Shown here: positions 1 through 21,063 of the stretch, piece by piece
Numbering within the stretch: position 1 is the stretch's first letter
Layout: every line of letters begins with the position of its first letter
Virus record (IMG/VR): IMGVR_UViG_2617270947_000018
DNA length: 21,063 bases
Origin: a virus
Taxonomy: Duplodnaviria > Heunggongvirae > Uroviricota > Caudoviricetes
Direction: 5' to 3' (one strand)
The notes under the pieces: model-generated
Told to the model about the DNA's origin: nothing
What the model saw: the letters and a program-made list of their open reading frames with translations, nothing else
Databases searched by the model: none
Program-made: the position numbers and the translations under genes

Positions 1-981
1 TTATAACGTCACTCCGCCTTTTAGTGGATTCAGAGCGACGGCATTTTGCAGATAGTCAGGCGCAAGGTGCGCATAGGCCATCGTCTGCTGAATGCTCGCA
101 TGTCCCAGAATCTGTTGCAGTGCGATTATATTGCCCCCATTCATCATGAAATGGCTTGCGAATGTATGCCGCAGGATGTGGGTTGCCTGATTGGGTGGTA
201 TATCAGGTTTCACTCTGCGTAAAATCCCGCAAAATTTCTCATAATCAACTTTGAATAATTTGGCGCTGGCCTCCTCTTTAACTTTTTTCTCCAGTTCCTC
301 AGAAATCGGCACGGTTCGCTTTTTACCGTTTTTGGTTTTCAGGAAGGTAACCCTGCAATTTGTAATCTGTGCTGGTTTTAGCGTGGCAACTTCCGTCCAT
401 CTTCCTCCAGTGCTCAGACATAAAAGCGCGACAAGTAAGTCATCACCAGCCAAAACATTTAACAGTTTTTCGATTTCTGCTTTTTCCAGGAACGTCATTT
501 CAGGGTTGGCCTCCGCCAGTGGCGGCAGTCCGTGAATTGGGTGTTGCCCGGAAAATTCATCCAATTGAATTAATTTTGTGAACATGCCGGATAATCTGTA
601 CATGTCACGGTTTATCGTTGAGGCACTGATACCATCACGTAGTCGCATGGAACGATAATCCATCAAAGCCCTTTTGCTCATCCTGCTCACTGGTATATCA
701 CCTATGCCGCTGATGGTTTTGAGTAGATGATTAAACTCTTTTGTTCCATGCTCGTGGTTTTGCCCGTGATATTTCCACCAGATGTCCAGCAACTCACTCA
801 AAGTCCGGCGGTCTGCTCGCTGGCCTCCCCATTCTTTCTGACTGGCATTGGCGATTGTGTATCGCTCAAATGCTAGTGCTTCAGCTTTTCTTTCGAATTT
901 CCTGCGGATGCGTTTTCCGTCGCGACCGCGAGGTCTAATGTCCACTTCATAGCGACCATCATCGAGCTTCTTAATTGCCAT
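1..981 (-). CDS. int: Tyrosine recombinase / phage integrase (P2 Int-like)
   Basis: Minus-strand ORF whose stop codon is at 1-3. The C-terminus has the tyrosine-recombinase catalytic region (HILRHTFASHF ... LGHASIQQTMAYAH, i.e. the R/H-x-x-R...H...Y signature). The N-terminus MAIKKLDDGRYEVDIRP matches P2 Int as recalled. The start at 979-981 is preferred because GGAGGG lies about 8 nt upstream; an in-frame ATG at 1009-1011 would add 10 codons but has no Shine-Dalgarno (SD). Confidence 0.88.
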   Translation of the reverse strand: MAIKKLDDGRYEVDIRPRGRDGKRIRRKFERKAEALAFERYTIANASQKEWGGQRADRRTLSELLDIWWKYHGQNHEHGTKEFNHLLKTISGIGDIPVSRMSKRALMDYRSMRLRDGISASTINRDMYRLSGMFTKLIQLDEFSGQHPIHGLPPLAEANPEMTFLEKAEIEKLLNVLAGDDLLVALLCLSTGGRWTEVATLKPAQITNCRVTFLKTKNGKKRTVPISEELEKKVKEEASAKLFKVDYEKFCGILRRVKPDIPPNQATHILRHTFASHFMMNGGNIIALQQILGHASIQQTMAYAHLAPDYLQNAVALNPLKGGVTL

Positions 982-1050
982 AAGAAAGCCCTCCGGCGCT
1001 GTATTCACCATCTTGGTAGCAAATGGTGAAAATGTAATCTTTATATAGAG

Positions 1051-1344
1051 TTAGCCAATCCTTTTCGCGGAGTGGTTGGACTCTGTTGACTCTGGCCCAA
1101 TGTGCGCGAGAGCCGGTGCGATTTGTCCTGCGTCCGGCGCGGTTTTATCTGTCATAAGCCATAGAGCATATTTTTGGAATGTGGGATGCATAGTGATTTT
1201 TAGCAAAGCTGTGCCACCGGGTTCAAAGTTTCCTCCTTCATATTTTTTAAGTGTGCTTAGCGGTAACTCTATGATTTCACAGAATTTTGATTGGCTTAGC
1301 CCTTCAGCCTCACGCAAGGCCTTAATCTTTTCGCTTAATTTCAT
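1051..1344 (-). CDS. C: Immunity repressor, P2 C-like but a different immunity type
   Basis: 97-aa ORF divergent from cox and immediately upstream of int, as in P2. The C-terminal half contains QIAPALAH, as in P2 C from memory, but the N-terminal DNA-binding half differs from P2 C. Confidence 0.8.
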   Translation of the reverse strand: MKLSEKIKALREAEGLSQSKFCEIIELPLSTLKKYEGGNFEPGGTALLKITMHPTFQKYALWLMTDKTAPDAGQIAPALAHIGPESTESNHSAKRIG

Positions 1345-1755: not shown

Positions 1756-1926
1756 ATGAATGAGCCGCGTTGTATTGCTCAGTTATTGCGTAACGAAAGC
1801 CCCAGGGCGATTGACTTCACCATCACCCACGGGAAGGGGCGCAAGGGAATCATTATCCGCACCAAAAAACAGAGTCCGTTAAAAAAGGCTCTGACCTTTC
1901 TGAAAAGCCGGAGGGCCTGGAAATGA
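1756..1926 (+). CDS. Small basic early protein (P2 orf78-like position)
   Basis: ORF between cox and B. The ATG at 1756 follows a GGGG-rich SD-like stretch and overlaps the cox stop; an upstream in-frame ATG at 1729 is also possible. Its stop overlaps the B start (ATGA). Confidence 0.5.
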   Translation: MNEPRCIAQLLRNESPRAIDFTITHGKGRKGIIIRTKKQSPLKKALTFLKSRRAWK

Positions 1927-2423
1927 CAGTGATGACGCTCAATCTCGTTGAAAAACAGCCAGCAGCTATGCGCCGGATAATTGGTAAGCATCTTGCCGTT
2001 CCTCGCTGGCAGGATACATGTGATTATTATAATCAGATGATGGAGCGCGAACGGCTAACAGTTTGCTTTCATGCGCAGTTAAAACAACGTCACGCAACGA
2101 TGCGTTTTGAAGAAATGAACGACGTCGAACGTGAACGGCTGGTTTGTGCAATTGATGAATTGCGTGGCGCATTCTCAAAACGCCGTCAGGTTGGCGCAAG
2201 TGAGTATGCATATATTAGTTTTTTAACAGTCAGTCAGCGTCGCACTTTATTTATGCACGCACGACTGACTGAAAAAGAATTCAACCAGCCATACTGGCGA
2301 ATTAATGAAGAATCATGTTACTGGCGTGATGCTTTGTTCCGTGCATTACGTGAATTATTCAGCCTGTTTGAGTATGCACCGACAATTCTGACGTCGGTAA
2401 AACCAGAGCAATATCTGCATTAA
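1923..2423 (+). CDS. B: Replication protein B (helicase-loader-like, P2 gpB)
   Basis: 166-aa ORF, the same length as P2 B, in the conserved position after cox; the translation matches P2 B as recalled. Confidence 0.82.
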   Translation: MTVMTLNLVEKQPAAMRRIIGKHLAVPRWQDTCDYYNQMMERERLTVCFHAQLKQRHATMRFEEMNDVERERLVCAIDELRGAFSKRRQVGASEYAYISFLTVSQRRTLFMHARLTEKEFNQPYWRINEESCYWRDALFRALRELFSLFEYAPTILTSVKPEQYLH

Positions 2424-3237: not shown

Positions 3238-3509
3238 GTATTCGTATCGAAATTGGCGAACGTTATGTCGTTACCAGTGACAGCTTTCAGTTTATTCTCC
3301 ACGAGAAAAAGAGAGCGGAAAGCGGTAAAAACGCCGGTCAGGAATGGCTGTCGGTGGTTGGTTATTACCCGAAATTAAGCCAGCTCGTTTCCGGCCTGAT
3401 GCATCACGATATTCTGACCGGAAGCGCAAAGTCTTTTGCTGATTTAAACGCGCAGGTTGAGCAACTCAGCAAGCGTTGTTCAGAGGCTTTTGGCTCATAT
3501 GGCCGTTAA
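3234..3509 (+). CDS. Hypothetical early protein (P2 orf83-like)
   Basis: 91-aa ORF; ATG overlaps the previous stop; its 3' end overlaps the first 11 nt of gene A. Confidence 0.55.
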   Translation: MSIRIEIGERYVVTSDSFQFILHEKKRAESGKNAGQEWLSVVGYYPKLSQLVSGLMHHDILTGSAKSFADLNAQVEQLSKRCSEAFGSYGR

Positions 3510-5784
3510 AGCCTCCGGGCGTTTTGTCCCTCCGTCAGCATTTGCCGCAGGCACCGGTAAGGCGTTTACCGGTGCTTATGCATGGAACGCGCCACGCGAG
3601 GCCGTCGGGCGCGAAAGACCCCTTACACGTGACGAGATGCGTCAGGTGCAAGGTGTTTTATCCACGATTAACCGCCTGCCTTACTTTTTGCGCTCGCTGT
3701 TTACTTCACGCTATGACTACATCCGGCGCAATAAAAGCCCGGTGCACGGGTTTTATTTTCTCACATCCACTTTTCAGCGTCGTTTATGGCCGCGCATTGA
3801 GCGTGTGAATCAGCGCCATGAAATGAACACCGACGCGTCGTTGCTGTTTCTGGCAGAGCGTGACCATTATGCGCGTCTGCCGGGGATGAATGACAAGGAG
3901 CTGAAAAAGTTTGCCGCCCGTATCTCATCGCAGCTTTTCATGATGTATGAGGAACTCTGCGATGCCTGGGTGGATGCGCATGGCGAGAAAGAATCGCTGT
4001 TTACGGATGAGGCACAGGCTCACCTGTATGGTCATGTTGCTGGCGCTGCACGAGCTTTCAATATTTCCCCTCTCTACTGGAAAAAATACCGTAAAGGGCA
4101 GATGACCACGAGGCAGGCATATTCTGCCATTGCCCGTCTGTTTAACGATGAGTGGTGGATTAGTCAGCTTAAAGGCCAGCGTATGCGCTGGCATGAGGCG
4201 TTACTGATTGCTGTCGGGGAGGTCAATAAAGACCGTTCTCCTTATGCCAGTAAACATGCCATTCGTGATGTGCGTGCACGCCGCCAGGCAAATCTGGAAT
4301 TTCTTAAATCGTGTGATCTCGAAAACAGGGAAACCGGCGAGCGCATCGACCTTATCAGTAAGGTGATGGGCAGTATTTCTAATCCTGAAATTCGCCGGAT
4401 GGAGCTGATGAACACCATTGCCGGTATTGAGCGTTACGCCGCAGCAGAGGGTGATGTGGGGATGTTTATCACGCTGACCGCGCCGTCAAAGTATCACCCG
4501 ACACGTCAGGTTGGAAAAGGCGAAAGTAAAACCGTCCAGCTAAATCACGGCTGGAACGATGAGGCATTTAATCCAAAGGATGCGCAGCGTTATCTCTGCC
4601 GTATCTGGAGCCTGATGCGCACGGCATTCAAGGATAATGATTTACAGGTCTACGGTTTGCGTGTCGTCGAGCCACACCACGACGGAACGCCGCACTGGCA
4701 TATGATGCTTTTTTGTAATCCGCGCCAGCGTAACCAGATTATCGAAATCATGCGTCGCTATGCGCTCAAAGAGGATGGCGACGAAAGAGGAGCCGCGCGA
4801 AACCGTTTTCAGGCAAAACACCTTAATCGGGGCGGTGCTGCGGGGTATATCGCGAAATACATCTCAAAAAACATCGACGGCTATGCACTGGATGGTCAGC
4901 TCGATAACGATACCGGCAGACCTCTGAAAGATACTGCCGCGGCTGTTACTGCATGGGCGTCAACGTGGCGCATCCCGCAATTTAAAACGGTTGGTCTGCC
5001 GACAATGGGGGCTTACCGTGAACTACGCAAATTGCCTCGCGGCGTCAGCATTGCTGATGAGTTTGACGAACGCGTCGAGGCTGCACGCGCTGCCGCAGAC
5101 AGTGGCGATTTTGCGTTGTATATCAGTGCGCAGGGTGGGGCAAATGTCCCGCGCGATTGTCAGACTGTCAGGGTCGCCCGTAGTCCGTCGGATGAAGTTA
5201 ACGAGTACGAGGAAGAAGTCGAGAGAGTGGTCGGCATTTACGCGCCGCATCTCGGCGCGCGTCATATTCATATCACCAGAACGACGGACTGGCGCATTGT
5301 TCCGAAAGTGCCGGTCGTTGAGCCTTTGACTTTAAAAAGCGGCATCGCCGCGCCTCGGAGTCCTGTCAATAACTGTGGAATGCTCACCGGTGGTGATACT
5401 TCGTTACCGGCTCCCACACCTTCTGAGCACGCCGCAGCAGTGCTTAATCTGGTTGATGACGGAGTTATCGAATGGAATGAGCCGGAGGTCGTGAGGGCGC
5501 TCAGGGGCGCATTAAAACACGGCCTGAGAACACCTAATCGTCAGCAAAGAAACGGAAGCCCGTTAAAACAGCATGAAATAGCGCCATCGGCCAGACTGAC
5601 CCGGTCGGAACGAATGCAAATCACCCGTATCCGTGTTGACCTTGCTCAGAACGGTATCAGGCCGCAGCGATGGGAGCTTGAGGCGCTGGCGCGTGGCGCG
5701 ACCGTAAATTATGACGGGAAAAAATTCACGTATCCGGTCGCTGATGAGTGGCCGGGATTCTCAACGGTAATGGAGTGGATATAA
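3499..5784 (+). CDS. A: Rolling-circle replication initiator (HUH endonuclease, P2 gpA)
   Basis: 761-aa ORF from ATG 3499 (the track's 3457 start is a TTG). HUH metal-binding motif TPHWHMMLF and a Y-x3-Y catalytic tyrosine pair (GYIAKYISK). Sequence and length match P2 A as recalled. Confidence 0.9.
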   Translation: MAVKASGRFVPPSAFAAGTGKAFTGAYAWNAPREAVGRERPLTRDEMRQVQGVLSTINRLPYFLRSLFTSRYDYIRRNKSPVHGFYFLTSTFQRRLWPRIERVNQRHEMNTDASLLFLAERDHYARLPGMNDKELKKFAARISSQLFMMYEELCDAWVDAHGEKESLFTDEAQAHLYGHVAGAARAFNISPLYWKKYRKGQMTTRQAYSAIARLFNDEWWISQLKGQRMRWHEALLIAVGEVNKDRSPYASKHAIRDVRARRQANLEFLKSCDLENRETGERIDLISKVMGSISNPEIRRMELMNTIAGIERYAAAEGDVGMFITLTAPSKYHPTRQVGKGESKTVQLNHGWNDEAFNPKDAQRYLCRIWSLMRTAFKDNDLQVYGLRVVEPHHDGTPHWHMMLFCNPRQRNQIIEIMRRYALKEDGDERGAARNRFQAKHLNRGGAAGYIAKYISKNIDGYALDGQLDNDTGRPLKDTAAAVTAWASTWRIPQFKTVGLPTMGAYRELRKLPRGVSIADEFDERVEAARAAADSGDFALYISAQGGANVPRDCQTVRVARSPSDEVNEYEEEVERVVGIYAPHLGARHIHITRTTDWRIVPKVPVVEPLTLKSGIAAPRSPVNNCGMLTGGDTSLPAPTPSEHAAAVLNLVDDGVIEWNEPEVVRALRGALKHGLRTPNRQQRNGSPLKQHEIAPSARLTRSERMQITRIRVDLAQNGIRPQRWELEALARGATVNYDGKKFTYPVADEWPGFSTVMEWI

Positions 5785-5895
5785 TGGCAAAAATTCACGA
5801 GATCTTAGATAGTTTCGTACTGTATATATTTAGTTGTTACTTGCAGTTTGGTATTGTTTGCCATGGTTGTTTGTTAAGTGCTTTAAAGGTGAGGA

Positions 5896-7734
5896 ATGAG
5901 CGAGTTCGATGTTTTTTCTATTTCAGTTGATGATTTTAAAAAAAGTGAGTACGCCAGTATATTGTTACCACCAAGAAGCCATTCTTATTTTGAAATGGAA
6001 TCTTATTTTTTTCAGTTGTTGTTATTTTATAAGCAAAAAAAAGATGTGAGTTCTTGGAGGGTTTGCTATTTATTACGTTCGTTATTTAGTTTAAAATTTT
6101 CTAAGTCTGGTGATATTATCGACTTTGAGTCTAAAATCATTCTCTATCCTAAGCGAGGTTATAGACCTTCAGATTACAAGGATAATTATTTAACCATATT
6201 AACTTGTATTAAAGAAAATACTGATAACCCTTATATTATATCTAGGGTGTGTGATGTTTTATGGATAAATAACCGTAAGGATATAGATTCTGCTAATAAA
6301 GCAATAGAGTCATATGCTCTAATGATTAATGATGCTTGTGATACTTTGTTAGAAAAAAAGGAATCAGGTGACATCCATGTTTTTGATGTTGTTGACTGCT
6401 TGGATAGAGGTATTACAATATCGCGCATGCTTATTGGCAGGAAAAAACAACTGCAAGGAGGGATAGTTGACTCGACGTTAAGGCTATATCATATATTAAT
6501 AGATTCTAGTATATTTATCGGTGTTTTAAGAATTTCTGAAATTCTTTATAAGAATAATTTATTGTGCCCCTTACAATTGGCTAAGAATGCAGAAAAGATA
6601 GCTGATGAGCATTGTGGAGCTTCTTATTTTGATGCTGTGAAAAAATTGTTTTATTTTGCGTCTGAATTATATGTTAAAAATGATATGGAAGAGCAAGGAA
6701 GAAGGTGCAAAATGAAAGCGACAGAAATAACATTGGCTCAATTTGAACAGTCTTCATCTCCAACATTGAAGGCTCATTGGCTAAGAGTTGCTCTTGGGGA
6801 ATTTAGAGCGATTGGTGGAATGAGTGAAAGGATTAAAGAGATTAAAGAGGAATTAAATTCTATTCGAGATCAAATCAATGATGAAATGTATTCCTTTGCA
6901 ATACCAATGGATCTTAGTGATGTTATCGCTCAGAAAGAGCATATTTATAATCAATTAAATTTCTCAGAAATAATTAAAAAATTAATCTCTAGATTTAAGG
7001 TTGTAAGTGCCAGTGAGATTATGGAAAGAGCTCGCTCTGATGCTAAGAGATATTTTTTTGTTAATGTGAGTGATACGGTTTTTTATGATGACAGAGGACG
7101 CGTTGTGGCAAGGCAACCACCTTTAGATTCTGCTGGGGATATAAGTCTAGATGATGCCTGTGTAAATTATTTAAGAACTAGTAATATTGAGCATCAGTTT
7201 TATGTTTATGGTGAGTTTGAAGTTGTTAGGCAAAGAGTGTTGTCTAGGTATTCATTAAATGAGAATACATTTGACCCAATCTCACAACAAAGTCTATTTG
7301 TTCCTCCTGGGTATGCGGAAATATTTTCTTTAGGATTTCTTAAGCTTTGGCAGGGGGATTATGTGTCTGCCTGTTATTTGTTGTTGCCGCAGTTGGAGAA
7401 TTCAATTAGATGGATTTTAGAATTAAGAAGAAAAGAAACAACGAAAATAGATGTGTCACTTTTTGAGGAGGCTACTAGTCTATCTCAAATGCTTGCAAAT
7501 TATAAGAGTGAAATGGAAGGTATTTTTGGGAGTGATCATGTATTGACTATGGATTTATTGTTCAATATGAAAGGTGGTGCTGCAATTAGACACACGATGG
7601 CTCATGGCAGGTATACTGTAAATCATTGTTATCAACCAACTTCAGTTTTTGCCTGTGTCTTTATCTTTTATTTAACTTGTTTGCCTTTATTTAGTGTATG
7701 GGAAGATAAAGTTGAACCTTATCTGACTGATTAA
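5896..7734 (+). CDS. Hypothetical 612-aa protein; AT-rich cargo gene in the P2 tin/old slot; candidate anti-phage (abortive-infection-like) effector with HEPN-like R-x4-H motif and C-terminal hydrophobic tail
   Basis: Long uninterrupted ORF in a region of about 25% G+C (counted on sampled 60-nt lines) against about 55% in flanking phage genes. Strong SD (AAAGGTGAGGA) precedes ATG 5896. No Walker A (GxxxxGK[ST]) motif. Near the C-terminus, GGAAIRHTMAHG (R565-x4-H570, nt 7588-7605) is followed by a 19-aa hydrophobic stretch VFACVFIFYLTCLPLFSVW (nt 7645-7701). It lies between gene A and cos, where P2 carries tin/old. Confidence 0.75.
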   Translation: MSEFDVFSISVDDFKKSEYASILLPPRSHSYFEMESYFFQLLLFYKQKKDVSSWRVCYLLRSLFSLKFSKSGDIIDFESKIILYPKRGYRPSDYKDNYLTILTCIKENTDNPYIISRVCDVLWINNRKDIDSANKAIESYALMINDACDTLLEKKESGDIHVFDVVDCLDRGITISRMLIGRKKQLQGGIVDSTLRLYHILIDSSIFIGVLRISEILYKNNLLCPLQLAKNAEKIADEHCGASYFDAVKKLFYFASELYVKNDMEEQGRRCKMKATEITLAQFEQSSSPTLKAHWLRVALGEFRAIGGMSERIKEIKEELNSIRDQINDEMYSFAIPMDLSDVIAQKEHIYNQLNFSEIIKKLISRFKVVSASEIMERARSDAKRYFFVNVSDTVFYDDRGRVVARQPPLDSAGDISLDDACVNYLRTSNIEHQFYVYGEFEVVRQRVLSRYSLNENTFDPISQQSLFVPPGYAEIFSLGFLKLWQGDYVSACYLLLPQLENSIRWILELRRKETTKIDVSLFEEATSLSQMLANYKSEMEGIFGSDHVLTMDLLFNMKGGAAIRHTMAHGRYTVNHCYQPTSVFACVFIFYLTCLPLFSVWEDKVEPYLTD

Positions 7735-7895
7735 TGGAAGTTGATTTAGGTATTTTGGCATTTATCTTTCTGCGTGCAATATGTGCATGGTTTTGCATGT
7801 GCCGGAGTTGCATGTTCCGGCCGTGCGTCCGCCAGAACGGGCGTGGCTCAAAAGCGGTATTGCACCTGCATTAAAAACACCCCATGAAGCGGGCG

Positions 7896-7914
7896 GGCGA
7901 GGCGGGGAAAGCAC
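7896..7914. other. cos site: 19-nt P2 cohesive-end sequence GGCGAGGCGGGGAAAGCAC
   Basis: Exact 19-mer recalled as the P2 cohesive end, found in the GC-rich non-coding region between the cargo gene and portal gene Q, where cos sits in the prophage permutation. Confidence 0.7.
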
Positions 7915-8083: not shown

Positions 8084-9118
8084 TCAGCCGTTGTCAGTGT
8101 CCAGTGAGTAGTTTTTAAAGCGGATGACCTCCTGACCGAGCCAGCCGTTTATCTCGCGGATCCTGTCCTGTAACGGGATAAGCTCATTGCGGACAAAGAC
8201 CTTTGCCACTTTCTCAATATCACCCAGCGACCCGACGTTCTCCGGCTTGCCCCCCATCAACTGAAAGGGGATGCGGTGCGCGTCCAGCAGGTCAGCGGCG
8301 CTGGCTTTTTTGATATTAAAAAAATCGTCCTTCGTTGCCACTTCACTGAGCGGGATAATTTTAATGCCGTCGGCTTTCCCCTGTGGGGCATAGAGAAACA
8401 GATTTTTAAAGTTATTGCGGCCTTTCGACTTAACCATGTTTTCGCGAAGCATTTCGATATCGTTGCGATCCTGCACGGCATCAGTGACGTACATGATGTA
8501 TCCGGCATGTGCGCCGTTTTCGTAATACTTGCGGCGGAACAGCGTGGCCGACTCATTCAGCCAGGCAGAGTTAAGGGCGCTGAGATATTCCGGCAGGCCG
8601 TACAGCTCCTGATTAATATCCGGCTCCAGCAGGTGAAACACGGAGCCGGGCGTGAAAGGTGTCGGCTCGTTGAAGGACGGCACCCACCAGTAAACATCCT
8701 CCTCCACCCCACGGCGGGTATATTTTGCCGGTGAGGTTTCCAGTCTGATGACCTTACCGGTAGTGCTGTAACGCTTTTCCAGAAACGCATTACCGAACAC
8801 CAGAAAATCCAGCACAAAGCGGCTGAAATCCTGCTGAGAAAGCCACGGATGCGGGATAAATGTCGAGGCCAGAATATTGCGTTTGACGTAAATTGGTGAG
8901 CTGTGATGCACGGCAGCACGCAGGCTTTTTGCCAGACCAGTAAAGCTGACCGGTGGCTCATACCATCTGCCGTTACTGATGCACTCGACGTAATCCAGAA
9001 TGTCACGGCGGTCGAGTACCGGCACCGGCTCACCAAAGGTGAATGCTTCCATTTTCGGGGCGCTGGCGGTCATTTTTTTTGCCGCAGGTTGCGGTGTTTT
9101 CCCTTTTTTCTTGCTCAT
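8084..9118 (-). CDS. Q: Portal protein (P2 gpQ)
   Basis: 344-aa minus-strand ORF, the same length and position as P2 Q; translation matches P2 Q as recalled. Its start overlaps the P stop (ATGA). Confidence 0.9.
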   Translation of the reverse strand: MSKKKGKTPQPAAKKMTASAPKMEAFTFGEPVPVLDRRDILDYVECISNGRWYEPPVSFTGLAKSLRAAVHHSSPIYVKRNILASTFIPHPWLSQQDFSRFVLDFLVFGNAFLEKRYSTTGKVIRLETSPAKYTRRGVEEDVYWWVPSFNEPTPFTPGSVFHLLEPDINQELYGLPEYLSALNSAWLNESATLFRRKYYENGAHAGYIMYVTDAVQDRNDIEMLRENMVKSKGRNNFKNLFLYAPQGKADGIKIIPLSEVATKDDFFNIKKASAADLLDAHRIPFQLMGGKPENVGSLGDIEKVAKVFVRNELIPLQDRIREINGWLGQEVIRFKNYSLDTDNG

Positions 9119-10890
9119 CAGTAAAACTCCAGAATGGTGGATGTCAGCGGGGTGCTGATACCGGCGGTGAGTGGCTCATTTAACAGGGCGTGCATGGTCG
9201 CCCAGGCGAGGTCGGCGTGGCTGGCTTCCTCGCTGCGGCTGGCCTCATAGGTGACACTGCGTCCGCTGCTGGTCATGGTCTTGCGGATAGCCATAAACGA
9301 GCTGGTGATGTCGGTGGCGCTGACGTCATATTCCAGACAGCCACGGCGGATAACGTCTTTGGCCTTGAGCACCATTGCGGTTTTCATTTCCGGCGTGTAG
9401 CGGATGTCGCGTGCGGCGGGATAGAACGAGCGCACGAGCTGGAACACGCCGACACCGAGGCCGGTGGCATCAATACCGATGTATTCGACGTTGTATTTCT
9501 CGGTGAGTTTGCGGATGGATTCAGCCTGAGTGGCAAAGTCCATGCCTTTCCACTGGTGACGCTCAAGTATTCTGAATTTGCCACCGGCCACCACCGGCGG
9601 TGCCAGTACCACGCATCCGGCGCTGTCGCCACGGTGTGACGGGTCGTAACCAATCCATACCGGGCGGGAGCCGAACGGATTCGCGGCAAACGGCGCATAG
9701 TCTTCCCATTCTTCCAGCGTGTCGACCATGCAGCGTTGCAGCTCCTCGAACGGGAACACCGACGCCTTGTCGTCAACAAATTCACACATGAACAGGTTTT
9801 TAAAATCGTCGGCGCTGTTTTCGCGTTTGAGCTGCTCAATGTCGAACAGCGTGCAGCCGCCTTTCAGGGCGTCCTCAATGGTGACAATCTGCCGCCACTG
9901 GCCGTCCGCACAGAGAAGTCCACCGGCAAGGGCGTTATGACTGACGTCGATTTCCACGCGTTCGGCGGCGCTGGCGCGTCCCCGGTTAAACAGTTCACCC
10001 GACCAGAACGGGTAGGCGTCGTGCGCCAGCGTGGACGGGGTGGAGAAATAGGTCGAACGCAGGTGACTCTGTGAGGCCATACCTGATGCCACCTTACGCA
10101 GTACCTGAAAATTCGGGATCCAGAAAATCTCGTCGACGTACAGGTCGCCGTTATGGCTCTGTGCGGTGTTGGAGTTGGTGCCGAGAAAAATCAGTTTTGC
10201 GCCGTTATTGCCCAGGACAATCGGGTCACCGGTCAGGTCAACGTCAACCAGCCGGGCAAAGGCGATGATGTATTCACGGAACACATACGCCTGCGTTTTA
10301 CTGGCCGACAGAAAAATCTGGTTATGGCCGGTTTTCAGGGCGCGCAGCAGCGCCTCGCGGGAAAAATAAAACGTTGCGCCAATCTGGCGGGATTTCAGGA
10401 TATCGCGGATGCGGTGCTCAAGCCCGGCGCGATACCAGTGCAACTGATAGTCGAAAGACTGCTCAAAGAAAATCTGCTCCAGCTTTTCGATGGCCTCGTC
10501 ACTGAAAAAATTCTTTTTCGGTTTGCGACGCCCGCCTTTGTTGCGGTTAGCGACGTTCGGATTAAGGTCTGCCTCGTTGCCGGTCTGACTGTAGCGGTTG
10601 ACCCGTGCCAGTCGTTCAATCTGGCGTCCTAGCAGGTCAATTTCCTTGAAGTCACCGCCGGTTTTCTGCGGTTTGATGATGAGCTGGGTCAGCCGCGCTT
10701 CCAGACTCATTTCGACACGGCTGATGGGGGCAACGCTGTCCCAGCCGTCGCGCTGTTTCCAGCTCTGCACCGTCGGGCGTTTCATCTGCAACATGGCGGC
10801 AATCTGCGGCACGGAAACCCCCTGCCAGTACAGCAGCGCCGCCTGACGACGCGGGTCGTGTAAAAGAGTGGTGTCTGTGGTGATGGTCAT
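9118..10890 (-). CDS. P: Terminase large subunit (ATPase/nuclease, P2 gpP)
   Basis: 590-aa ORF from ATG 10888-10890, starting MTITTDTTLLHDPRRQAALLYWQG as recalled for P2 P. The track's 600-aa version begins 10 codons upstream. Confidence 0.9.
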   Translation of the reverse strand: MTITTDTTLLHDPRRQAALLYWQGVSVPQIAAMLQMKRPTVQSWKQRDGWDSVAPISRVEMSLEARLTQLIIKPQKTGGDFKEIDLLGRQIERLARVNRYSQTGNEADLNPNVANRNKGGRRKPKKNFFSDEAIEKLEQIFFEQSFDYQLHWYRAGLEHRIRDILKSRQIGATFYFSREALLRALKTGHNQIFLSASKTQAYVFREYIIAFARLVDVDLTGDPIVLGNNGAKLIFLGTNSNTAQSHNGDLYVDEIFWIPNFQVLRKVASGMASQSHLRSTYFSTPSTLAHDAYPFWSGELFNRGRASAAERVEIDVSHNALAGGLLCADGQWRQIVTIEDALKGGCTLFDIEQLKRENSADDFKNLFMCEFVDDKASVFPFEELQRCMVDTLEEWEDYAPFAANPFGSRPVWIGYDPSHRGDSAGCVVLAPPVVAGGKFRILERHQWKGMDFATQAESIRKLTEKYNVEYIGIDATGLGVGVFQLVRSFYPAARDIRYTPEMKTAMVLKAKDVIRRGCLEYDVSATDITSSFMAIRKTMTSSGRSVTYEASRSEEASHADLAWATMHALLNEPLTAGISTPLTSTILEFY

Positions 10891-11063
10891 GAATACCTCG
10901 CCGTGATGAATACACGGCAAGGCTACTGAGTCGCGCCCCGCGATTCGCTAAGGTGCTGTTGTGTCAGTGATAAGCCATCCGGGACTGATGGCGGAGGATG
11001 CGTATCGTCGGGAAACTGATGCCGACATGTGACTCCTCTAATCACTATTCAGGACTCCTGACA
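10891..11063. promoter_or_regulatory. Divergent late-promoter region between P (leftward) and O (rightward)
   Basis: 173-bp intergenic region between divergently transcribed late operons, as in P2. I could not find an unambiguous Ogr-type dyad by eye, so only the region is called. Confidence 0.4.
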
Positions 11064-18314: not shown

Positions 18315-19223
18315 ATGCCGATTATCGACCTGAACCAGCTACCCGCACCGGATGTGGTCGAGGAGCTGGACTTTGAAACCATTCTTGCCGAACGCAAGGC
18401 GACACTGATTTCCCTTTACCCGGAAGACCAGCAGGAGGCGGTCGCCCGTACCCTGACACTGGAATCTGAGCCTCTCGTCAAACTGCTGGAGGAAAATGCT
18501 TATCGTGAGCTTATCTGGCGTCAGCGTGTGAATGAGGCTGCACGGGCGGTGATGCTGGCCTGTGCAGCCGGTAATGACCTTGATGTGATTGGTGCCAATT
18601 ACAACACCACACGCCTGATTATCCCCCCGGCAGATGATTCAACCATCCCGCCGACACCGGCAGTAATGGAATCTGACACCGATTATCGGCTGCGTATTCA
18701 GCAGGCGTTTGAGGGCTTAAGCGTCGCCGGGTCGGTGGGAGCCTATCAGTATCATGGTCGCAGTGCCGACGGGCGTGTCGCCGATATTTCTGTCACCAGT
18801 CCGTCTCCGGCCTGCGTCACCATCTCTGTGCTGTCACGTGAAAATAATGGTGTCGCATCCGAAGACCTGCTGGCCGTGGTGCGTAACGCCCTTAATGGCG
18901 AGGACGTCAGACCGGTGGCCGACCGCGTGACCGTGCAGTCTGCCGCCATTGTTGAATACCAGATAAACGCCACGCTTTACCTTTACCCTGGTCCCGAAAG
19001 CGAACCCATACGCGCTGCCGCCGTGAAAAAACTGGAAGCGTACATCACGGCACAGCACCGGCTGGGGCGTGACATCCGTCTGTCTGCCATTTATGCCGCT
19101 TTGCATGTGGAAGGCGTGCAGCGTGTTGAACTGGCTTCACCACTGGTCGACATCGTGCTCAACAGTACGCAGGCGTCTTTCTGTACCGAATACCGCGTCG
19201 TGACCGGAGGCTCGGATGAGTGA
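18315..19223 (+). CDS. J: Baseplate protein J
   Basis: 302-aa ORF; P2 length and order. Confidence 0.85.
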   Translation: MPIIDLNQLPAPDVVEELDFETILAERKATLISLYPEDQQEAVARTLTLESEPLVKLLEENAYRELIWRQRVNEAARAVMLACAAGNDLDVIGANYNTTRLIIPPADDSTIPPTPAVMESDTDYRLRIQQAFEGLSVAGSVGAYQYHGRSADGRVADISVTSPSPACVTISVLSRENNGVASEDLLAVVRNALNGEDVRPVADRVTVQSAAIVEYQINATLYLYPGPESEPIRAAAVKKLEAYITAQHRLGRDIRLSAIYAALHVEGVQRVELASPLVDIVLNSTQASFCTEYRVVTGGSDE

Positions 19224-19791
19224 TTTGCGCCTGCTGCCGACCGGCTCATCACCGCTTGAAGTCGCTGCTGCAAAAGCCTGTGCGGAAATTGAAAAAACGC
19301 CGGTCAGTATTCGTGAGCTGTGGAACCCGGACACCTGCCCGGCAAATCTGCTGCCGTGGCTGGCGTGGTCATTTTCGGTTGACCGCTGGGATGATAAGTG
19401 GGCGGAAGCGACAAAACGCGCTGTTATCCGCGATGCGTATTTCATTCACTGCCATAAGGGCACTATAGGCGCAATCCGGCGTGTGGTGGAGCCGCTCGGC
19501 TATCTGATTGAGGTGAGGGAGTGGTGGCAACTCAATGAGGAGCCGGGGACGTTCCGTATCGTTGTTGGCGTGCTTGAGCAGGGTATTACCGAGGAAATGT
19601 ATCAGGAGCTGGAGCGCCTCGTTGCTGATGCAAAACCGGCAAGCCGCCATCTGACGGGACTGGCTATCAGTTTAAGTACAACCGGCAACATTTTTGCCGG
19701 TGCGGGATGCTATCACGGCGACGCCCTGACAGTTTATCCCTACACCCCGGAGGCCATTATTGTCGGAGGGGATTATTTCCATAAGCGCTAA
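19216..19791 (+). CDS. I: Baseplate protein I, with 3' end running into the IS186-like terminus (C-terminus probably altered)
   Basis: ORF overlaps the J stop as in P2. It is 191 codons against 176 recalled for P2 I. The last codons CAT AAG CGC TAA (19780-19791) lie inside the insertion-sequence end. Confidence 0.7.
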   Translation: MSDLRLLPTGSSPLEVAAAKACAEIEKTPVSIRELWNPDTCPANLLPWLAWSFSVDRWDDKWAEATKRAVIRDAYFIHCHKGTIGAIRRVVEPLGYLIEVREWWQLNEEPGTFRIVVGVLEQGITEEMYQELERLVADAKPASRHLTGLAISLSTTGNIFAGAGCYHGDALTVYPYTPEAIIVGGDYFHKR

Positions 19792-21063
19792 CTTAAGGGT
19801 TGAACCATCTGAAGAATGCGACGCCTCGGTGCCTCGTTAAGACGATGCCTCGCGTTCTTCAATTGCGTTTTGTAGGCTGTCAGGGATACTGTCCCACGAA
19901 TGGCCACCTGTAAGCTCCAGATGACCATTTTTGTTATTCTCCACAACGAGTTAGTTCTTCTTTTCGGATCCGGCACTTCTGGGGGGGAAATCCAGCGATG
20001 GCTGGATTATGTCGTCAATTAAAAATGCGGCGAGTAGATTAGCAAATATCCACGCTTTCGCGAGTTCAGGTTCCTTTGCACGCAAAGCATCCAGGTGCAG
20101 CAAACTTTTGAGCCGCTTAAAAGCCAGTTCAATTTGCCATCGCAGACGGTAACAATCAGCCACTTGCTCTGCTGAATATTCATCTTCCGGTAATGATGTT
20201 AGCAATAGCACATGGCCCGCTGCTTCCAGCGTTTCCGCCTGAACTACTCGTCCTTTTCGACGATTCTCGCTGAGCAGTCGGGTTTTACTGATTAATGCTT
20301 TTTCGGGAGGAAGTGATACGGCAATGAGACGTGCCGGAAAGGGAGCTCCGGCTTTTTTATTACCTGAATTGCCTATCATTACAGTGGTTTCACCGTTCTT
20401 ACCGCAATCCAGCCCGCGCAGAAAACCCATCATGTCAAAGCGCATTCCTTCTGCAGTTAACCAGCGCAATCCTCGCCAGTGAACCCGGACGATATAATCA
20501 GCTTCTCCAAAAGCAAGTGAGCGGATACATTCGGGACGCGAACCGAATCCCCGGTCAGCAATGCGTATCTCGTCTGCCGTTTGCGCAAATCGGTCCAGCC
20601 GTTCAGCGTCTCTGCTGTCGGTTAGCTCAAAATCAGTGAACTGACAGGTATGAGGATCATATCCCATATGTAGTCGCCATTCAGCGCTGCCGCCCCCGGG
20701 CGCACTGATTGCTGTTCCATCGACAAGACGCAATCTCTTTCCGCTTGTACAACCCGTAACTGCGGCGCGTACAGCAAGTGTTTGTGCGGCAAGTATGCCA
20801 AACCAGTCGGCGGCATTCCGCAGCCGCTTCAGGAGAGCCACGTCAGATAATGTTGCAACGTCATGGAGCTGAGCCCATGCAGTGACTTCACGTAATGACA
20901 TCCCCCCGGGGCCGTAAGCCAGCCCCAGACGTAGCAGAGTTGCAGCATCACGAATTTCGCGGCGGCGGGTTAGAGCCCCGGCATTACGTGCCGAAGTATC
21001 CAGTTCTTCGGGCTTACCAATATGGGCCAGAATTGCTGACCAGTTATCGTGAGAGTAATTCAT
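19780..21063 (-). mobile_element. IS186-like insertion sequence (IS4 family), partial; extends beyond the window
   Basis: The terminal sequence CATAAGCGCTAACTTAAGGGTTG begins at about 19780 and is recalled as the IS186 inverted repeat. It contains the complete 370-aa transposase ORF. The implied length (about 171 bp, plus 1113 bp ORF, plus about 50 bp beyond the window) fits the roughly 1.34-kb IS186. Confidence 0.8.
19951..21063 (-). CDS. insL: IS186 transposase (DDE, IS4 family)
   Basis: 370-aa minus-strand ORF whose ATG is the last three bases of the window; the translation (MNYSHDNWSAILAHIGKPEELD...) matches the IS186 transposase as recalled. Confidence 0.88.
   Translation of the reverse strand: MNYSHDNWSAILAHIGKPEELDTSARNAGALTRRREIRDAATLLRLGLAYGPGGMSLREVTAWAQLHDVATLSDVALLKRLRNAADWFGILAAQTLAVRAAVTGCTSGKRLRLVDGTAISAPGGGSAEWRLHMGYDPHTCQFTDFELTDSRDAERLDRFAQTADEIRIADRGFGSRPECIRSLAFGEADYIVRVHWRGLRWLTAEGMRFDMMGFLRGLDCGKNGETTVMIGNSGNKKAGAPFPARLIAVSLPPEKALISKTRLLSENRRKGRVVQAETLEAAGHVLLLTSLPEDEYSAEQVADCYRLRWQIELAFKRLKSLLHLDALRAKEPELAKAWIFANLLAAFLIDDIIQPSLDFPPRSAGSEKKN

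Follow-up and report, generated by a model that had tools for sequence, protein, structure and literature searches.

Described relatives and earlier catalogues

Several validated anti-phage systems, namely ApeA, AbiJ, AbiD/AbiF, PD-T7-4, HEC-08, DS-11 and DS-38, consist of one polypeptide in which an accessory domain is joined to a HEPN nuclease, and in HEC-08 and DS-11 defence requires the Rx4-6H residues. Such an architecture is also predicted for the protein considered here, the product of 612 amino acids (aa) of a cargo gene located at positions 5896-7734 (plus strand) of a 21,063-nt stretch of DNA (IMG/VR record IMGVR_UViG_2617270947_000018). This stretch, hereafter the window, contains the left part of a P2-like prophage. 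The cargo protein, a member of the DUF7380 / PDC-S39 family, is read here, with confidence slightly better than even, as a single-polypeptide abortive-infection or exclusion ribonuclease (RNase). Compared with the validated HEPN defences, it matches none of their PADLOC models, and its combination of DUF7380 with a TPR-like module is not common to them. The gene, the family, the predicted HEPN effector and the hotspot in which the gene resides have all been catalogued already, and the window gene is one more allele of a known candidate kind.

PDC-S39 is itself a single-gene candidate, and the cargo protein shows no structural difference from it. It comes from a set of 145 ‘untested phage defence candidates’ (Payne et al. 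2024, 10.1101/2024.01.29.577857), which were drawn from genes lying inside BREX, DISARM and type I restriction-modification (RM) loci (10.1101/2024.01.29.577857). Other known systems are similar in some respects and different in others. The HEPN domains of C6orf70 (ERMARD)/DUF4209 have the Rx4-6H motif in common with the cargo protein, while the eukaryotic members of C6orf70, unlike the cargo protein, are predicted to lie in the endoplasmic reticulum membrane and to take part in cellular RNA decay. The phage-exclusion cargo of P2 itself, Old and Tin, sits at this same place between gene A and cos (Rousset 2022). The cargo protein differs from Old in being a single all-alpha HEPN protein in which a regular-expression search found no Walker A motif and Pfam and PADLOC scans found no ATPase or TOPRIM domain. 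HEPN-MNT toxins (SO_3166, PDB 5yep, 7ae2) are proteins of ~130 aa paired with an MNT antitoxin gene, whereas here the HEPN domain lies at the end of a protein of 612 aa and no partner gene is present in the 2-kb module.

Alleles and relatives of the gene appear in several earlier collections. An allele with 88% aa identity is on record as ORF612 from the P2-like prophage in ECOR46 (P2-EC46; GenBank AM157366). In the survey of the P2 hotspot, system #55 ‘DUF4209’ (76 loci) has the protein start MSEFDVFSISVDDFKKSEYASILSSPRSY, which is that of the 88% allele, and lies in the same gpA-gpQ slot (Rousset 2022, Table S5B); WP_042964140, the protein of gene copies that are 99.9% identical to the window gene, appears there in NZ_CP030281 (Table S5A). 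System #55 is absent from the systems cloned in that work. The same survey includes system #13 ‘DUF4209’ (193 loci), cloned from E. coli S88 with its native promoter as pFR103 ‘Putative HEPN’ (Rousset 2022). The system #13 protein is colinear with the cargo protein (28% identity, E=7e-51) and comes from the same P2 slot. More recently, the 88% allele (WP_001288417.1) was listed as a ‘Predicted novel defense gene’: its mean log-odds is 8.85, where the stringent cut-off is set at 4. Of its remote matches the AbiJ C-terminal domain ranks first (probability 63, coverage 0.19), and the allele is not among the 118 units tested (DefensePredictor, Science 2026). The literature on DUF7380, or on the HEPN domain of ERMARD/C6orf70, yielded nothing beyond Anantharaman 2013.

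A cargo gene in a variable slot of P2-like prophages

The gpA-gpQ interval has been defined as a defence hotspot with 1,650 gene arrangements, many of them with validated defences (Rousset 2022). The cargo gene is a horizontally acquired cargo of this gpA-cos/gpQ hotspot. Backbone identity of 95-97% to two other P2-like phages is lost at 5759-5801 and regained at 7783-7861 (BLAST), which delimits a foreign module of ~2.0 kb (5802 to ~7860) with a single long open reading frame (ORF) inside. In the same slot, these two phages carry either DUF3850 with a hypothetical gene or unrelated hypothetical genes. The left backbone flank is P2 gene A, which encodes the replication endonuclease (3457-5784, plus strand; Pfam Phage_GPA, E=8.9e-124). 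The right edge of the hotspot is set by the 19-nt sequence GGCGAGGCGGGGAAAGCAC (7896-7914, plus strand), which is that of the P2 cohesive-end site (cos) and occurs as one exact match where none is expected by chance. Beyond it lie P2 gene Q, the portal gene (8084-9118, minus strand; Pfam Phage_portal and RefSeq annotation of a near-identical prophage), and the terminase gene P (9118-10920, minus strand), followed by gene O, the major capsid gene and later genes. The GGCGAGGCGGGGAAAGCAC string also adjoins the cargo in P4 clones (Rousset 2022, Table S2).

The slot is common and this particular occupant is rare. The flanks are matched by 78 of 50,697 phage records, and the cargo gene is found in one alone, P2-EC46, where ‘ORF612’ is annotated as a hypothetical protein and has 91.9% nucleotide identity to it. 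The last 590 bases of gene A are present in 1,682 of 5,426 complete E. coli genomes, and the cargo gene in 21. All 21 copies are chromosomal and keep the full-length frame intact, six of them at ≥99% identity and fifteen at ~91%. Strains E308 and VE-V10-F, for example, carry the gene at 99.9% nucleotide identity; in VE-V10-F the prophage around it is the same, its neighbour is cpxP, and RefSeq names the product ‘DUF7380 domain-containing protein’. An ECOR assembly (GCF_003334585.1, NZ_QOYF01000007.1) carries the 88% allele, and a DUF2634 protein encoded ~20 kb from it on the same contig is the validated defence system DS-7 (DefensePredictor Table S6).

Additional genes are seen beside the 88% allele. 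In E. coli ECC-1470, two extra small genes of 89 and 156 aa separate it from portal gene Q (locus L003, 5653-6385), and neither reaches a Pfam cut-off. A variant in Table S5A has the 88% allele followed by a hypothetical gene and then by an RVT_1 reverse transcriptase (Rousset 2022). These arrangements indicate that the slot can stack several cargo units.

The ORF starts with ATG and its frame is intact. Its G+C content is 33.1% (20-48% in 60-nt lines, with a mean of 33%) and falls to 25.6% at third codon positions, against 53.5% in gene A and 56.4% to the right of cos. The ratio of nonsynonymous to synonymous substitution rates (dN/dS) relative to the 88% allele is 0.23, and the gene is therefore real and constrained by purifying selection. 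The amino acid differences from this allele (12% of residues) are concentrated in aa 1-100 and 301-400. Synonymous divergence from the same allele (ECC-1470 / P2-EC46) is 0.04 in codons 501-612 (7396-7734) and 0.18-0.40 elsewhere; on this pattern the alleles look mosaic, with a putative recombination breakpoint close to where the HEPN core begins.

Signals for expression are found around the ORF. A Shine-Dalgarno-like sequence, AAGGTGAGG, lies upstream of the ATG (5886-5894, plus strand; read from the sequence), and the AAGG inside it ends six bases before the start codon; the GenBank record of the P2-EC46 allele has a ribosome-binding site annotated at the equivalent position. A promoter-like site, TTCTCA-16-TATAAT (5758-5785, plus strand), with 10 of 12 consensus matches, overlaps the end of gene A and is a possible own promoter of the cargo gene; it comes from a consensus scan in which promoter-like sites are no more numerous here than shuffled sequence would lead one to expect, so that the evidence for it is weak. 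The same applies to a terminator-like hairpin past the stop codon (7773-7789, plus strand), for which a consensus scan alone likewise gives weak evidence.

A first-pass annotation made by a model from the sequence alone had described this interval as a single 612-aa gene at 5896-7734, with its own strong Shine-Dalgarno sequence, set between backbone genes (A on the left; cos, Q and P on the right), and had expected the slot to vary among P2-like prophages. The coordinates, the Shine-Dalgarno sequence, the flanks and the one long ORF in the foreign block all agree with the present results, and comparison of the interval across P2-like phages, with different genes in the slot and 21 against 1682 genomes, bears out its variability. 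The difference in composition claimed there is real with respect to the flanks, but it was overstated, since the ORF has 33.1% G+C and not about 25%.

Family membership and domain architecture

Both hidden Markov models of PDC-S39 match the cargo protein over its full length, PDLC05011 with E=4e-73 (aa 8-599; profile positions 7-583 of 595) and PDLC05012 with E=1.7e-68. The PADLOC scan of the protein gave no match other than PDC-S39, and the NCBIfam scan gave none. PHROG 5183, annotated as of unknown function, also matches at full length. Pfam DUF4209 (PF13910) is matched by five of the seven sequences of one alignment of the family (A1), with a best E of 9.3e-6. A word-indexed search returned the same 7 proteins from a single-sequence query and from a 60-sequence profile query, and it was an exhaustive profile search that exposed the family: among 1.84 billion cluster representatives (50% identity), a profile of the seven closest sequences matched 3,708 proteins at E≤1e-3, and 1,118 when the threshold is tightened to E≤1e-30. 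Almost all of them have 600-640 aa and are matched end to end, which indicates a large family of fixed architecture. Its members occur in Proteobacteria, Binatota and cyanobacteria.

Three regions are distinguished in the cargo protein. The N-terminal DUF7380 domain (aa 8-184; 5917-6447, plus strand) scores 91.3 bits against a cut-off of 27 for Pfam PF24098 and is the proposed sensor or regulatory module; its near-invariant residues in an alignment of 60 sequences are R87, D93, R117, D120 and W123. It is followed by a central all-alpha region of TPR-like helical repeats (~aa 185-414; 6448-7137, plus strand) and by a C-terminal domain of HEPN fold related to DUF4209/C6orf70 (modelled stretch aa 415-612; 7138-7731, plus strand). 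The full-length AlphaFold2 model is almost wholly helical, with a predicted local distance difference test score (pLDDT) of 91.3 and a predicted template modelling score (pTM) of 0.77. Fold searches with this model returned TPR or alpha-solenoid proteins alone, and sequence searches of solved structures with three profiles gave nothing significant. The C-terminal domain fits the all-alpha helical-bundle fold of HEPN proteins, the proteins named for this comparison being sacsin HEPN, AbiA, RnlA/LsoA, Las1, MtlR and AbiV.

Conservation is strongest in this C-terminal domain. Besides Met1, the residues that are invariant in the 60-member alignment, whose sequences share 19-88% identity with the cargo protein, are E501, G561, R565, H570 and G571, and the motifs that hold them in the family are PQLENSxR and RHxxAHG. 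In the cargo protein the first is PQLENSIR (aa 498-505; 7387-7410, plus strand), with the invariant E501 and the near-invariant R505 (60-sequence and 34-domain-sequence alignments). The second, RHTMAH (7588-7605, plus strand), found by regular-expression search and in the alignment of 60 homologues, runs from R565 to H570, is followed by the invariant G571 and corresponds to the Rx4-6H signature of HEPN domains, here with a spacing of four residues. HEPN enzymes are endoribonucleases that usually act as dimers in which two Rx4-6H motifs are paired. An Rx4-6H-like string at aa 427-433 was rejected as the HEPN dyad, as R427 and H433 are not conserved in a homologue of 28% identity (P0007); a further string of this kind is present at aa 572-577.

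The last part of the domain also bears on the location of the protein. A membrane-anchored protein acting at the inner membrane could be envisaged from aa 583-602 (SVFACVFIFYLTCLPLFSVW), whose Kyte-Doolittle mean is 2.17, from the ‘1 TM’ (transmembrane) flag given to system #55 (Rousset 2022, Table S5B) and from the prediction of one transmembrane helix in C6orf70. This is an exceedingly improbable reading. In the domain model, aa 583-602 form the last helix of the HEPN bundle with high confidence, the median hydropathy of the family at this place is 1.41, with no more than 17 of 60 sequences above 1.6, and the family consensus (IYACWLIYRLTCLPL) has an arginine inside the segment. On the strength of the model and of the family hydropathy, the segment was judged to be a hydrophobic core helix and its transmembrane reading was set aside.

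The first-pass annotation did not recognise this protein, in which Pfam and PADLOC scans and the predicted structure now reveal DUF7380, a full-length PDC-S39 match, the HEPN fold and the invariant Rx4H motif. It was right in finding no Walker A motif and in separating the protein from OLD-type ATPases. Its proposal of a single-gene defence candidate is credible; that of an undescribed, new system is not supported, because ORF612 of P2-EC46, Rousset #55, PDC-S39 and the DefensePredictor listing all precede it and a 28% relative has been cloned.

Proposed function and its alternatives

DUF4209/C6orf70 has been placed in the HEPN superfamily among the domains predicted to be catalytically active, with bacterial forms that are fused to TPR and located in RM-related operons (Anantharaman et al. 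2013), a description that fits the cargo protein. In the abortive-infection or exclusion mechanism that can be proposed for it, a sensor and auto-inhibitory module would be made up of DUF7380 and the TPR-like helical array, and the HEPN domain at the C-terminus would act as an endoribonuclease that needs no metal, with R565 and H570 as catalytic residues and E501 in a supporting role. If other HEPN enzymes are a guide, the active site would be built from the paired Rx4H motifs of two protomers. A phage-derived trigger would then bind or remodel the N-terminal module, and the RNase so released would cut host and phage RNA (tRNA, rRNA or mRNA), which would stop translation, abort the infection and protect the lysogen population. 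In this scheme the fold, the motif, the domain architecture and the genomic location are shown by the analysis, whereas the RNase activity, the dimerisation, the RNA target, the trigger and the anti-phage phenotype are inferred. The broader proposal that PDC-S39 proteins are a genuine, widespread single-protein immune system, in which a site formed by R87, D93, R117, D120 and W123 senses a phage cue and unleashes the HEPN RNase, is plausible but must be held tentatively, at rather less than an even chance.

Several observations weigh against a defence function. The main one is the negative result with pFR103, which stands in Table S2B as tested but not validated on the set of eight phages used (Rousset 2022). 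In addition, the literature contains no reported phenotype for any family member, and PDC systems are untested candidates. The cargo protein itself does not match Pfam DUF4209 (PF13910) at E≤1, HEPN folds are also found in non-catalytic regulators such as MtlR, and the gene neighbourhoods of ten distant homologues are mixed, with housekeeping and mobile-element genes, an integrase, ArdC, RecT and few defence matches.

The pFR103 result is weakened by three circumstances: the panel comprised eight phages only, a PARIS homologue in the same paper worked only when induced, and H-NS probably silences DNA of 33% G+C in E. coli. The same circumstances bear on an alternative that is unlikely but deserves attention, namely that the protein is an active HEPN conflict RNase whose target lies outside the standard lytic coliphages, among P4-type satellites, P2-like or temperate phages or plasmids, or whose activity is conditional on temperature, host background or relief of silencing. 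Such a protein would behave as the S88 relative did against eight standard phages; another P2-hotspot system protected against P2, and the gene adjoins cos, an element common to P4 and P2 (Rousset 2022). The silencing expected from the composition of the gene and the induction needed by the PARIS homologue would both be consistent with conditional activity. On the other side, a role specific to P4 cannot be general, since the family is present in Alphaproteobacteria, Binatota and cyanobacteria outside P2/P4.

The existence of HEPN-fold proteins that are not nucleases, such as MtlR and some sacsin-type domains, raises the question of a non-catalytic HEPN acting as a scaffold or binding protein, and the IS (insertion sequence) transposase at the expected start of gene H, by which the element may be defective, that of a decaying remnant ORF. 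Both are very improbable: R565, H570 and E501 are invariant in 60 sequences with 19-88% identity, 21 genomes keep the entire reading frame open, dN/dS relative to the 88% allele is 0.23, and the architecture of 600-640 aa is kept in the 1118 cluster representatives found at E≤1e-30.

In Enterobacter, a homologue of 52% identity occupies the same slot between gene A and the portal gene in a degraded P2-like prophage. There, a 303-aa DUF2971 gene (E=1.2e-5) follows 7 nt downstream (locus L007, 9852-10763; locus L005, 11849-12760) and is a possible partner gene, with no counterpart in the window. A homologue of 28% identity (locus L004) has two tyrosine integrases upstream and QatABCD, an SNase and an MmeI-type RM system downstream; the gene order at 12265-21857 is KAP_NTPase (QatA-like), QatB, an unannotated gene, TatD DNase (QatD-like), SNase and MmeI-family RM, and the island resembles an integrative element that has gathered defence genes. 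Ten further loci, from Yersinia, Sphingomonadales, Binatota and a cyanobacterium, are those whose mixed content is mentioned above; their PADLOC matches are SoFic (twice), PDC-S24, a DRT-type reverse transcriptase, PDC-S31 and PD-Lambda-2_B. Taken together, the link of the family to defence genes is suggestive, not strong.

This context is where a non-defence accessory gene (‘moron’) has to be considered, that is, an RNA-processing, RNA-decay or regulatory protein that alters host physiology or prophage maintenance. The many distant homologues amid housekeeping genes and the negative defence assay of the S88 relative would be explained by it, the P2 hotspot also holds genes that do not serve defence, among them partition systems and cytolethal distending toxin (Rousset 2022), and the eukaryotic C6orf70 (ERMARD) branch is predicted to act in stress-related RNA decay (Anantharaman 2013). 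Against it stand the patchy and rare occurrence of the gene (21/5426), its foreign composition and its apparent allele mosaic, which together form the pattern of a conflict gene, as well as the choice of the family by its embedding in BREX, DISARM and type I RM loci, the relative within an island of Qat and RM genes, and the DefensePredictor log-odds of 8.85 for the 88% allele. A moron of this kind is thus improbable, and a defence RNase is preferred.

Other features of the prophage window

In the window, the integrase gene comes first (1-1011, minus strand), followed by a helix-turn-helix repressor-like gene (1051-1344, minus strand), cox and several small early genes. In this early region, an ORF of 166 aa (1923-2423, plus strand) has no Pfam match, lies within a part of the window of lower G+C content (43-47%) and has an equivalent in VE-V10-F that RefSeq names ‘hypothetical protein’. 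At the other end, tail gene I (19216-19791) is directly followed by an ORF of 370 aa (19951-21063, minus strand) with a DDE_Tnp_1 transposase domain (E=1.6e-26), which reaches the end of the window and occupies the expected site of tail-fibre gene H. The tail-fibre region is thus probably interrupted by an IS element, and the prophage may be defective.

Significance

At present, the value of the window gene is that of a well-defined construct to test, in the form of an already catalogued gene from an already described hotspot. If functional, it would bring experimental support for the first time to a family of ~3,700 representatives that so far has only names from candidate lists, and it would reveal how, inside one polypeptide, a HEPN RNase is kept under the control of a TPR-like sensor. 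Its HEPN domain is of a lineage, that of C6orf70/ERMARD, that goes back to the last eukaryotic common ancestor, so that, if the proposal is true, its trigger and target would give the first functional handle on ERMARD. This would add a further link between prokaryotic and eukaryotic immunity.

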